The notes below the pieces were generated by a model. It was not told the origin of the DNA. It did not search any database and saw nothing but the letters and a program-made list of their open reading frames with translations. Below, one piece after another: positions 1 through 33,565 of a DNA stretch of 49,379 nucleotides. The translations under genes and the position numbers were made by a program. This DNA comes from Escherichia coli (GTDB lineage Bacteria > Pseudomonadota > Gammaproteobacteria > Enterobacterales > Enterobacteriaceae): NCBI RefSeq assembly GCF_003334315.1, contig NZ_QOWR01000034.1. One strand, written 5' to 3'. Numbering within the stretch: the stretch's first letter is position 1; every line of letters starts with the position of its first letter.

Positions 1-81
1 AAGTCGCTGTCGTTCTCAAAATCGGTGGAGCTGCATGACAAAGTCATCGGGCATTATCTGAACATAAAACACTATCAATAA
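1..81 (+). CDS. 3' end of an upstream gene running in from the window edge; by remembered synteny this would be cutC
   Basis: Frame 1 is open from base 1 (KSLSFSKSVELHDKVIGHYLNIKHYQ*) to TAA at 79-81. Identity is inferred only from gene order. Confidence 0.4.
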   Translation, partial: KSLSFSKSVELHDKVIGHYLNIKHYQ

Positions 82-208
82 GTTGGAGTCATTACCTTCT
101 TTATCGATTGTTTCAGGCAGTGTTGTGCCTAATTATGCAAGCGGTTAATTCGTTGTATATTTAATTATACAATGATTTCGGTGTCCAGTAATTTAATTAG
201 AGGAATCT

Positions 209-1309
209 ATGCGAGGGAAAAAACGCATTGGGTTATTGTTTTTGCTGATAGCGGTTGTGGTTGGTGGCGGCGGGTTATTGCTGGCGCAAAAAGCCTTACA
301 TAAAACGTCGGATACAGCATTTTGCCTTTCCTGCCACTCGATGAGTAAACCTTTTGAGGAATATCAGGGAACTGTCCACTTTTCGAACCAGAAAGGGATA
401 CGTGCGGAATGTGCCGATTGCCATATTCCAAAGTCAGGGATGGATTATTTATTTGCTAAATTAAAGGCATCTAAAGATATTTATCATGAATTTGTTAGCG
501 GCAAAATAGACAGTGACGATAAGTTCGAAGCTCATCGCCAGGAAATGGCCGAAACAGTATGGAAAGAATTAAAAGCCACTGACTCTGCAACGTGCCGTAG
601 TTGCCATTCTTTTGATGCCATGGATATTGCCTCGCAAAGTGAATCTGCGCAGAAAATGCATAACAAAGCACAAAAGGACAGCGAAACCTGTATCGATTGT
701 CATAAAGGCATTGCCCATTTTCCGCCAGAAATAAAAATGGATGACAACGCGGCGCATGAGCTGGAAAGTCAGGCCGCTACTTCAGTTACTAATGGCGCAC
801 ATATTTATCCTTTCAAAACTTCTCACATAGGCGAGCTGGCTACCGTGAATCCTGGAACCGATCTCACCGTCGTTGATGCCAGTGGCAAACAGCCGATCGT
901 TCTGTTGCAGGGTTATCAAATGCAGGGCAGTGAAAACACGCTCTACCTGGCGGCAGGTCAACGGCTGGCGCTAGCCACATTAAGTGAAGAAGGTATCAAG
1001 GCGCTCACTGTAAACGGGGAATGGCAGGCTGACGAATACGGCAATCAATGGCGTCAGGCGTCTTTACAGGGTGCGCTTACCGATCCCGCATTAGCGGACC
1101 GTAAACCGCTATGGCAATACGCTGAAAAACTTGACGATACCTATTGCGCTGGTTGTCATGCCCCTATTGCCGCCGACCATTACACCGTCAATGCGTGGCC
1201 GTCCATTGCCAAAGGAATGGGGGCACGAACCAGCATGAGCGAAAACGAACTGGACATTTTAACGCGGTATTTCCAGTACAACGCCAAAGATATTACCGAG
1301 AAACAGTGA
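209..1309 (+). CDS. torY: Pentahaem c-type cytochrome of the NapC/NirT/TorC family (TorY), membrane-anchored quinol dehydrogenase partner of TorZ
   Basis: 366-aa ORF with an N-terminal hydrophobic anchor and five CxxCH haem motifs (CLSCH, CADCH, CRSCH, CIDCH, CAGCH); length matches recalled TorY. Confidence 0.93.
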
Positions 1310-1333: not shown

Positions 1334-3763
1334 ATGACATTAACAAGACGTGAATTTATTAAACACAGCGGTATTGCCGCTGGAGCGCTGGTGGTGACAT
1401 CGGCAGCACCGCTCCCCGCATGGGCAGAAGAGAAGGGCGGTAAAATCCTCACCGCGGGACGTTGGGGAGCGATGAACGTAGAAGTGAAGGACGGCAAGAT
1501 TGTTTCTTCAACAGGCGCGCTGGCGAAAACCATACCGAATTCCTTACAGTCTACGGCGGCGGATCAGGTACACACCACGGCGCGTATTCAGCATCCGATG
1601 GTGAGAAAAAGCTATCTCGATAATCCACTGCAACCGGCGAAAGGTCGTGGCGAAGATACCTATGTACAGGTGAGCTGGGAACAGGCATTAAAACTGATTC
1701 ATGAGCAACATGATCGTATTCGTAAAGCTAACGGACCATCGGCCATTTTTGCCGGATCTTACGGCTGGCGCTCTTCTGGCGTGTTGCATAAAGCGCAAAC
1801 CTTACTGCAACGTTATATGAACCTGGCGGGCGGTTATTCCGGGCATAGCGGCGATTATTCAACCGGGGCAGCACAGGTGATCATGCCGCATGTGGTCGGT
1901 TCTGTAGAGGTGTATGAACAGCAGACCTCCTGGCCGCTGATTCTGGAAAACAGCCAGGTTGTGGTGCTGTGGGGAATGAACCCGCTGAATACCTTAAAAA
2001 TTGCCTGGAGCAGTACCGATGAGCAAGGGCTGGAATACTTCCATCAGCTGAAAAAATCTGGCAAACCAGTGATTGCCATTGATCCTATCCGCTCCGAAAC
2101 CATCGAATTCTTTGACGATAATGCCACCTGGATCGCGCCGAATATGGGCACCGACGTGGCACTGATGTTAGGGATTGCGCATACCCTGATGACACAAGGC
2201 AAACACGATAAAGTGTTCCTTGAAAAATACACTACCGGGTATCCGCAGTTTGAAGAGTATCTGACAGGTAAGAGCGATAATACGCCGAAGAGCGCGGTCT
2301 GGGCGGCGGAAATTACTGGCGTACCGGAAGCGCAGATAGTCAAACTCGCTGAACTGATGGCGGCGAATCGCACAATGCTGATGGCAGGCTGGGGAATTCA
2401 GCGCCAGCAATATGGTGAACAGAAACACTGGATGCTGGTGACGCTGGCGGCGATGTTAGGGCAGATTGGTACACCAGGCGGCGGTTTTGGTTTCTCTTAT
2501 CATTACTCCAACGGTGGCAACCCGACGCGTGTTGGCGGCGTGCTGCCGGAAATGTCTGCGGCGATTGCCGGACATGCCAGCGAGGCCGCTGATGATGGCG
2601 GAATGACGGCGATTCCTGTTGCCCGTATCGTCGATGCGCTGGAAAATCCTGGCGGCAAATATCAGCATAACGGTAAAGAACAAACGTATCCGAATATCAA
2701 AATGATCTGGTGGGCGGGTGGCGGTAACTTTACCCATCACCAGGATACTAATCGTCTGATTAAAGCATGGCAGAAACCGGAGATGATCGTCGTTTCTGAA
2801 TGCTACTGGACCGCAGCAGCCAAACACGCAGATATCGTATTACCGATCACCACATCGTTTGAGCGCAATGACTTGACGATGACCGGTGATTACAGCAACC
2901 AGCATATTGTGCCGATGAAGCAGGCTGTTGCTCCGCAATTTGAAGCGCGTAACGATTTTGACGTGTTTGCCGATCTTGCGGAATTACTCAAACCTGGCGG
3001 AAAAGAGATCTATACCGAAGGTAAAGATGAAATGGCGTGGCTGAAATTTTTCTATGATGCCGCTCAGAAAGGTGCCCGTGCGCAACGCGTCACTATGCCA
3101 ATGTTTAATGCCTTCTGGCAGCAAAATAAACTGATCGAAATGCGCCGCAGCGAGAAGAACGAACAGTACGTTCGTTATGGTGATTTCCGCGCCGATCCGG
3201 TGAAAAATGCGCTGGGTACGCCAAGCGGCAAAATTGAAATCTATTCAAAAACGTTGGAAAAATTTGGCTATAAGGATTGCCCGGCACACCCAACCTGGCT
3301 GGCTCCTGATGAATGGAAAGGTACCGCCGACGAGAAGCAGTTACAGCTTCTGACCGCACATCCGGCACACCGTTTACACAGTCAGCTTAACTATGCGGAA
3401 CTGCGTAAAAAATATGCGATCGCCGATCGTGAACCAATCACTATTCACACCGAAGATGCTGCACGCTTTGGTATTGCGAATGGCGATCTGGTGCGTGTCT
3501 GGAACAAACGTGGTCAGATTTTGACAGGCGCGGTGGTGACTGACGGGATCAAAAAAGGCGTGGTATGCGTGCATGAAGGTGCATGGCCAGATCTGGAAAA
3601 TGGCTTGTGTAAAAACGGCAGTGCGAACGTGTTAACGGCGGATATCCCCAGCTCGCAGCTGGCAAATGCCTGTGCCGGTAACTCAGCGTTGGTGTATATC
3701 GAAAAATATACGGGCAATGCACCGAAGTTAACGGCGTTTGATCAGCCAGCTGTTCAGGCGTAA
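1334..3763 (+). CDS. torZ: Periplasmic molybdoenzyme, trimethylamine-N-oxide reductase 2 (TorZ/BisZ)
   Basis: Start moved from track ATG 1316 to ATG 1334, which has GGAGG upstream. Twin-arginine signal [15 protein letters not shown], 809 aa, immediately downstream of torY. Confidence 0.93.
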
Positions 3764-3927: not shown

Positions 3928-6075
<2,148 letters not shown>

Positions 6076-23737: not shown

Positions 23738-23775
23738 ATCTTGCACAGATTGTAGAACAATTTTTACACTTTCAG

Positions 23776-33427: not shown

Positions 33428-33565
33428 TCTTAATCTCCTCATCATTCGCGGGCAAAAGTTACTAAGAGTGAGCCAGGATGGCAAGCCGGAATTGATGATC
33501 CTCGACTCAGACATTAGACAAGGTTATGCTCTGTAAAAAAGTTATTACAAAAAGGAATAGATAAT

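Follow-up and report, generated by a model that had tools for sequence, protein, structure and literature searches.

An Inverted Repeat Upstream of torYZ in Escherichia coli Is the Likely Core of a Predicted ModE Operator

Introduction

The regulator ModE is a homodimer whose DNA binding depends on molybdate as its ligand and that recognizes a 24-bp inverted repeat; the promoters of modA, moaA and napF are established as being under its control. Its operator pattern is CG-N-TATATA-N6-TATATA-N-CG (CGNTATATA-N6-TATATANCG), which we checked on five K-12 sites only, those of modA, moaA, dmsA, napF and yghW. A degenerate form was used alongside it, with R/Y at half-site positions 2 and 4: CG-N-T(A/G)T(A/G)TA-N6-TA(C/T)A(C/T)A-N-CG. 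The pattern found one site per promoter region in K-12 modA, moaA, dmsA and napF, each at 14 to 15 of the 16 positions, and the reference set, scored against the strict form, is as follows:

modA site, K-12, CGTTATATTGTCGCCTACATAACG, 14/16
moaA site, K-12, CGCTATATACATGATTACATAGCG, 15/16
dmsA site, K-12, CGATGTATACAAGCCTATATAGCG, 15/16
napF site, K-12, CGCTATATAAATATATTTATAACC, 14/16
yghW site, K-12, 13 bp upstream of the yghW start codon, CGCTATATATTGTCATATATAGCG, 16/16 (perfect)

In the 27 kb of K-12 loci scanned there was one further match at 13/16 or better besides these reference sites. Counted from the transcription start that the NarP and FNR boxes located in its sequence imply, the napF site is about 134 bp upstream, in agreement with the position of the ModE site of napF. 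A genomic SELEX study of ModE by Kurata et al. in 2013 reportedly added new target promoters, morA and morB, which face away from yghW and torY. The perfect box at yghW fits that report and is an independent check on the pattern; a text search of the literature for morB gave only irrelevant matches.

Among the S-/N-oxide reductases of E. coli, TorYZ is the one about which least is understood; it is reported to be barely expressed and not to be induced by its substrates. TorZ belongs to the DMSO-reductase-type molybdoenzymes (PMC5122715; PMC12096835), and ModE control of dmsA is documented (PMC12096835). Expression of torYZ was constantly low and showed no induction under the conditions tested (PMC1805755), and it has likewise been described as very low (PMC5122715), while torZ has been found responsive to HOCl, copper and paraquat (PMC12096835).

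We examined a stretch of 49,379 nucleotides of E. coli DNA that contains torYZ near its start (hereafter the window). A preliminary description of this DNA, made from its letters alone, had pointed to a palindrome upstream of torY as a candidate operator and had called the control of the operon poorly understood. The latter statement is probably outdated, since ModE binding at torY was reportedly found in 2013. ModE boxes are well known and one ahead of a molybdoenzyme operon is to be expected; the site is of an ordinary kind at a sensible place, and what is gained is an explanation and no discovery.

Results and Discussion

The Inverted Repeat and Its Setting

The features around the palindrome are listed below in window positions, which convert to E. 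coli K-12 as NC_000913.3 position = 1958341 minus window position.

153 to 159, no strand: left arm TTGTATA, with a core, TGTATA, that also forms the left half of the dmsA promoter box; 155 is G/A and 157 is A/G among lineages
166 to 172, no strand: right arm TATACAA; core TATACA, which is TATATA in two other Escherichia species
199 to 204, plus strand: Shine-Dalgarno sequence of torY, AGAGGA, assigned by eye from the sequence
209 to 1309, plus strand: torY, an ORF for a pentahaem NapC/NirT-family cytochrome c, named torY in matching annotated genomes
1334 to 3763, plus strand: torZ, an ORF for a molybdenum (bis-MGD) S-/N-oxide reductase, with the start taken from the RefSeq annotation of the identical region

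The palindrome is present as it was first described, with two perfect 7-bp arms around the 6-bp spacer TTTAAT (153-172, TTGTATATTTAATTATACAA). Its location was also given correctly: the dyad lies upstream of torY, 37 to 56 nt from the ATG at 209, in AT-rich DNA (68% A+T across 98-208). The inverted repeat widens to 16+16 nt at 147-178, where it is imperfect (81% complementary).

Several other patterns occur in this short region. The hexamer TAATTA is found three times at exact 32-bp steps (130-135, 162-167 and 194-199), and there is an 11-bp direct repeat with one mismatch, TAATTATGCAA at 130-140 and TAATTATACAA at 162-172, with no conservation of the upstream copy in other lineages. Further upstream, TTTCAGGCAGTGTTGTG (111-127) is invariant in all 12 aligned Escherichia sequences, E. 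albertii included, while the DNA on either side of it is variable. It looks like a sigma-54 -24/-12 element, yet the gap between GG and GC is one base short, and a sigma-54 reading of the invariant GGCAGTGTTGTGC was rejected on this ground.

Taken as a generic palindrome, the dyad is within chance. Perfect repeats with arms of 7 bp and spacers of 0 to 10 number 73 in the window, compared with 39 +/- 6.6 in dinucleotide shuffles, and the probability of finding one or more of them is 0.06 for the proximal 111 bp and 0.37 for the 309 bp of the wild-type intergenic region.

Fit to the ModE Pattern

A different result was obtained when the dyad was compared with the ModE operator pattern, for which it forms the inner part of a longer element:

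151 to 174, no strand: ModE-type box CG-T-TGTATA-TTTAAT-TATACA-A-TG, 24 bp, NC_000913.3 positions 1958167-1958190, containing the dyad (by pattern, PWM and conservation)

This box (CGTTGTATATTTAATTATACAATG), which lies 35 bp upstream of the torY start codon, matches the strict pattern at 13/16 and the degenerate pattern at 15/16 positions. It is the sole pattern match in the 49-kb window, where 0.05 (strict) or 0.13 (degenerate) matches are expected, and when the AT-rich intergenic region was shuffled 20,000 times, a match of this quality had P = 0.014 (strict) and P = 0.00025 (degenerate). With a PWM built from the five K-12 sites, the torY box scored 18.7 bits, the maximum of the window and within the range of the reference sites themselves (17.4-25.3 bits, leave-one-out). 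As a match to the ModE operator pattern, the dyad is well beyond chance. The strict score of 13/16 is nevertheless below those of all proven sites (14-16), the right flank is TG instead of CG, and G/C occupies position 2 in both half-sites, for which dmsA is the sole precedent. Genome-wide, roughly 17 sites at 13/16 or better are expected, an estimate that assumes uniform base composition. The runner-up to the five-site matrix in the window, GGCTTTATAGGCGTCAATATGACG at 5319-5342 (16.9 bits), falls within a cmoA-like coding region and is probably an artefact of a matrix made from few sites.

A molybdate-sensing regulator makes sense at torYZ because TorZ is a molybdenum enzyme, and we consider it likely that the dyad forms the centre of a ModE operator, predicted at 151-174, that would couple torYZ to molybdate availability. 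We infer occupancy of 151-174 by ModE from the sequence together with the genomic SELEX result attributed to Kurata et al. The suggestion of a candidate operator was sound in that an operator-type site is found in the torYZ control region, although the fit to a ModE-type pattern had not been considered. If the ModE reading is right, the relevant variables are molybdate and ModE, rather than oxygen (anaerobiosis) and TMAO.

It is highly improbable that the dyad belongs instead to another, uncharacterised regulator that shares the TRTATA-N6-TATAYA geometry. The response of torZ to oxidants and copper is not obviously explained by ModE and would speak for such a protein (PMC12096835); against it, the resemblance to ModE sites takes in the flanks and the spacing as well, and FNR, CRP, LexA and NarL were tried without a fit. 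As had been stated for the first two of these, the dyad is neither an FNR nor a CRP site: the Escherichia intergenic region contained no match to FNR TTGAT-N4-ATCAA, CRP TGTGA-N6-TCACA or LexA CTGT-N8-ACAG with up to 2, 2 and 1 mismatches, respectively. A GalR operator has been predicted by information theory at NC_000913.3 position 1958198 (PMC5110547). This in-silico site, ATGCAAGCGGTTAATT (135-150), adjoins the dyad without overlapping it, and ST131, O157 and further lineages have lost the CG at its centre; we rejected it as an account of the dyad.

Variation within Escherichia

Four 30-mer queries sorted about 5250 of the 5426 complete E. coli genomes into the following types:

K-12 type: left arm TTGTATA (perfect), spacer base 164 A, 1764 genomes
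ST131 type: left arm TTGTATA (perfect), spacer base 164 T, 660 genomes
Variant: left arm TTGTGTA, spacer base 164 A, 1928 genomes
Variant: left arm TTGTGTA, spacer base 164 T, 899 genomes

The left arm thus reads TTGTGTA in about 2827 of the roughly 5250 classified genomes, with the right arm unchanged and therefore no compensation. Outside E. coli, the right arm is TATATAA in Escherichia sp. E1V33 and in strain SCPM-O-B-8794 (counted as a separate species in our species collection), and the left arm of E. albertii is TTATATA. The perfect 7-bp arms accordingly do not hold up as the unit of the site, as their symmetry is broken in about half of the E. coli genomes; the 24-bp box at 151-174 takes their place. 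All three arm substitutions in Escherichia (155 G/A, 157 A/G and 170 C/T) fall on the R/Y positions that vary among proven sites, and a degenerate score of 15/16 is kept in every Escherichia lineage. Judged from these alignments, the apparent decay of the palindrome is variation inside the tolerance expected of a ModE site.

The same variation bears on the resemblance of the dyad to a TyrR box (TGTATA-N6-TATACA vs. TGTAAA-N6-TTTACA). With 10/12 matches in the K-12-type sequence and its G and C 14 bp apart, the dyad formally qualifies as a "strong" TyrR box under a published definition (PMC4374768), and the two kinds of box have the 6-bp spacing and G-N14-C in common, their flanks being unrelated. 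However, the window contains four matches to the TyrR box at two or fewer mismatches, with 1.8 expected, and two of the four are better than the dyad. The invariant G is lost in E. albertii and the C in E1V33, SCPM-O-B-8794 and most Citrobacter boxes, and about half of the E. coli genomes (those with TTGTGTA) score 9/12. Furthermore, torYZ has no functional tie to aromatic amino-acid metabolism, and a literature search found no link between TyrR and torY. A TyrR site at this position is, in our estimation, barely conceivable. The one-mismatch TyrR box matches in the window are TGTAGAACAATTTTTACA and TGTAAAAAAGTTATTACA, at 23751-23768 and 33532-33549, respectively; TGTAGAACAATTTTTACA sits between ORFs of 491 and 603 aa that resemble zwf and edd.

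Conservation of the Box with torY

A search for TorY with one genome per species gave 34 loci, 30 of which were scanned for the box. It was present upstream of torY in 24 of the 30, in Escherichia spp., Citrobacter, Trabulsiella, Entomohabitans, Budvicia, Yersinia, Leminorella and Limnobaculum, and there was no other match in the 174 kb of these loci. At the thresholds used, the torY loci of Vibrionaceae and Terasakiispira had no box. The start of the box relative to the torY ATG varies with the genus:

Four Escherichia species: -58 or -55
Leminorella: -114 and -162
Budvicia, Limnobaculum and Yersinia massiliensis: -187 to -210
Citrobacter, Trabulsiella and Entomohabitans: -299 to -318

The genes upstream are of at least eight kinds (e.g., cutC, usp-like, guaA, potF-like, a LuxR-type regulator and citG-like), and since the neighbours vary between loci, the box travels with torY. 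The Citrobacter box (CATTGTATATTTAATTATATAACG) is the same as that of E. coli at 21 of 24 positions, including the spacer, while the TorY proteins are only about 60% identical. The profile of the 24 distinct boxes reads C-R-T-T-R-T-R-T-A-(TTTAWT)-T-A-T-A-Y-A-A-Y-G.

These comparisons also bear on the explanation that the dyad is a chance palindrome in AT-rich, H-NS-bound promoter DNA, its conservation being due to the core promoter and to H-NS nucleation. Such an origin would suit the abundance of generic 7-bp palindromes in the window and the lack of perfect symmetry in about half of the E. coli genomes. It would also suit the listing of the cutC-torY spacer among both RpoD-holoenzyme and H-NS sites by genomic SELEX (PMC3946193), and the fact that the right arm overlaps the best -10 candidate, which is TATAAT in two species. 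Chance, however, leaves unexplained the flanking CG, the fixed 6-bp spacing and the absence of further boxes in 174 kb, and in other genera near-identical boxes are situated 110-320 bp from the torY start codon, remote from the core promoter. We regard this explanation as quite improbable.

The torY loci of Citrobacter, Trabulsiella and Entomohabitans contain two more sites between the box and torY, at about -80 and -37 from the torY ATG: an FNR box that is perfect (TTGATGAATATCAA) and a 7-2-7 site for NarL/NarP (e.g., TACCTATAAAAGGGTA). The ModE-type box is about 220 bp upstream of these sites. The FNR and NarL/NarP sites were absent from every Escherichia torY region checked. Outside the box, the alignments of E. 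coli with Citrobacter are at noise level in this AT-rich DNA and speak neither for nor against a deletion. The cross-genus comparison presents the box as an old, conserved part of the torYZ unit, and Escherichia as having lost the FNR and NarL/NarP sites of its relatives. We have seen no earlier description of the conservation of the box with torY across the Enterobacterales, or of Escherichia having lost its FNR and NarL/NarP sites.

Promoters around the Box

Two promoter-like sequences overlap the box:

145 to 173, plus strand: best proximal sigma-70-like candidate, TTAATT, 17 bp, TACAAT (heuristic PWM scan; weak, below the threshold of the consensus scan)
132 to 159, minus strand: promoter-like site TATACA, 16 bp, CATAAT (consensus scan, 9/12; about one such site is expected per 400 bp)

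The centre of the ModE-type box is near -17.5 of the sense candidate, the -10 element of which reads TATAAT in two other species. In the opposite-strand site the -35 element is the left half of the box, and the -10 element is not conserved beyond K-12-type strains. This site may be the divergent ModE-dependent promoter reportedly named morB.

Shimada and colleagues predicted a distal promoter (GTGACA, 18 bp, TAAAAA) about 230 bp upstream of the torY ATG (PMC3946193), and with transcription from that distance the box would fall within the torY leader. Among experimental start sites (Kim 2012, Cappable-seq, ROSE and Conway datasets) we found none for torY except the sole entry that Kim et al. 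(2012) assign to "torY", at a distance of 615 nt, which would give a 615-nt leader. We rejected it as a torY promoter: it has a sigma-E-type promoter, GGAACTT...TCCAATCA, and corresponds to the start of the sRNA MicL inside cutC.

A long leader raises the question of whether the dyad acts as RNA, with a hairpin at 150-175 in a torY 5' leader from the distal promoter affecting mRNA stability or translation. The predicted distal promoter (PMC3946193) makes such a leader conceivable, the stem would have 10 bp, 97% of the alignment cells pair when G-U is allowed, and pairing is kept in five of eight substitution events. The alignment nevertheless has zero compensatory double changes, and for five of seven transitions to be compatible with wobble pairing, P is about 0.23. 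Folding gave a z-score of just -1.48, the stem is weak, AU-rich and clear of the ribosome-binding site, Rfam gave no match, and the sole listed upstream "torY" start (Kim 2012) is the MicL promoter. There is also no intrinsic terminator-like site at the dyad. We give an RNA element a very slim chance.

Insertions of IS1 Upstream of torY

Window positions 1-96 are the last 96 bases of an IS1 element (the end of insB and the right terminal repeat), ending ...GTCATTACC, in the same orientation as torY. The IS1 end is 112 bp upstream of the torY ATG, with AT-rich DNA in between, and the element separates the box and torY from the part of the cutC-torY spacer beyond it, where Shimada et al. predicted the distal promoter. 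The exact IS1-torY junction of the window was absent from all complete E. coli genomes searched. In complete E. coli genomes, IS1 has inserted independently ahead of torY at eight or more sites: 47, 104, 112, 115, 131 and 137 bp from the torY ATG, and two more at about 163 and 245 bp; these were gathered with a query that selects one orientation only. In strains DAM and ANT, IS1 lies inside the ModE-type box, with the target duplication TAATTATAC, and in strain LZYWN_4 it is within torY itself. A further mobile element is present in the cutC-torY spacer of strain E400634, where an IS200/IS605-family tnpA stands in place of the cutC-proximal part.

The recurrence of IS1 may mean that the AT-rich DNA is a hot spot, or that a change in torYZ expression has been selected for. 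We have seen no earlier description of natural IS1 insertions in the cutC-torY spacer, one of them in the box.

Proposed Regulation and Comparison with Known ModE-Controlled Promoters

In the mechanism that we propose, molybdate-loaded ModE would bind 151-174, with an outcome set by the surrounding promoter layout. In Escherichia, ModE bound at the box would most likely impede rather than help the sense transcription of torYZ, from the proximal as from the distal candidate promoter, or else favour a divergent transcript, as the box overlaps both the only plausible proximal sense promoter and the -35 element of the opposite-strand site. Hindrance by ModE would fit the constant, very low expression of torYZ. 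In Citrobacter, Trabulsiella and their relatives, the box is more likely to be an upstream co-activator site, in a layout that resembles napF.

A more far-reaching scenario, which we consider rather unlikely, is that Escherichia lost the FNR and NarL/NarP module, leaving the box on the core promoter or leader, where molybdate-loaded ModE, in place of an upstream co-activator role, would now repress torYZ or divert polymerase to the divergent transcript. If this were true, it would account for the cryptic state of torYZ in laboratory media replete with molybdate, and perhaps also for the recurrent IS1 insertions in the spacer, including the one that splits the box.

The torY box resembles the K-12 ModE operators at modA, moaA, dmsA, napF and yghW in being a 24-bp repeat with TATATA-type halves and a 6-bp spacer, and it resembles the yghW box in particular by its position very near a start codon. 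Within this set it stands apart through its lowest strict score, the G/C variant in both halves and the TG right flank. As to function, the known ModE operators are found at genes for molybdate uptake, the molybdenum cofactor or molybdoenzymes, and torYZ is a molybdoenzyme operon too. The closest parallel is with the napF control region of K-12, which has a trio of ModE, FNR and NarP/NarL sites that is shared by the torY loci of Citrobacter, Trabulsiella and Entomohabitans. Compared with napF, torYZ of Escherichia has kept the ModE-type box alone, and there the box abuts the ribosome-binding region.
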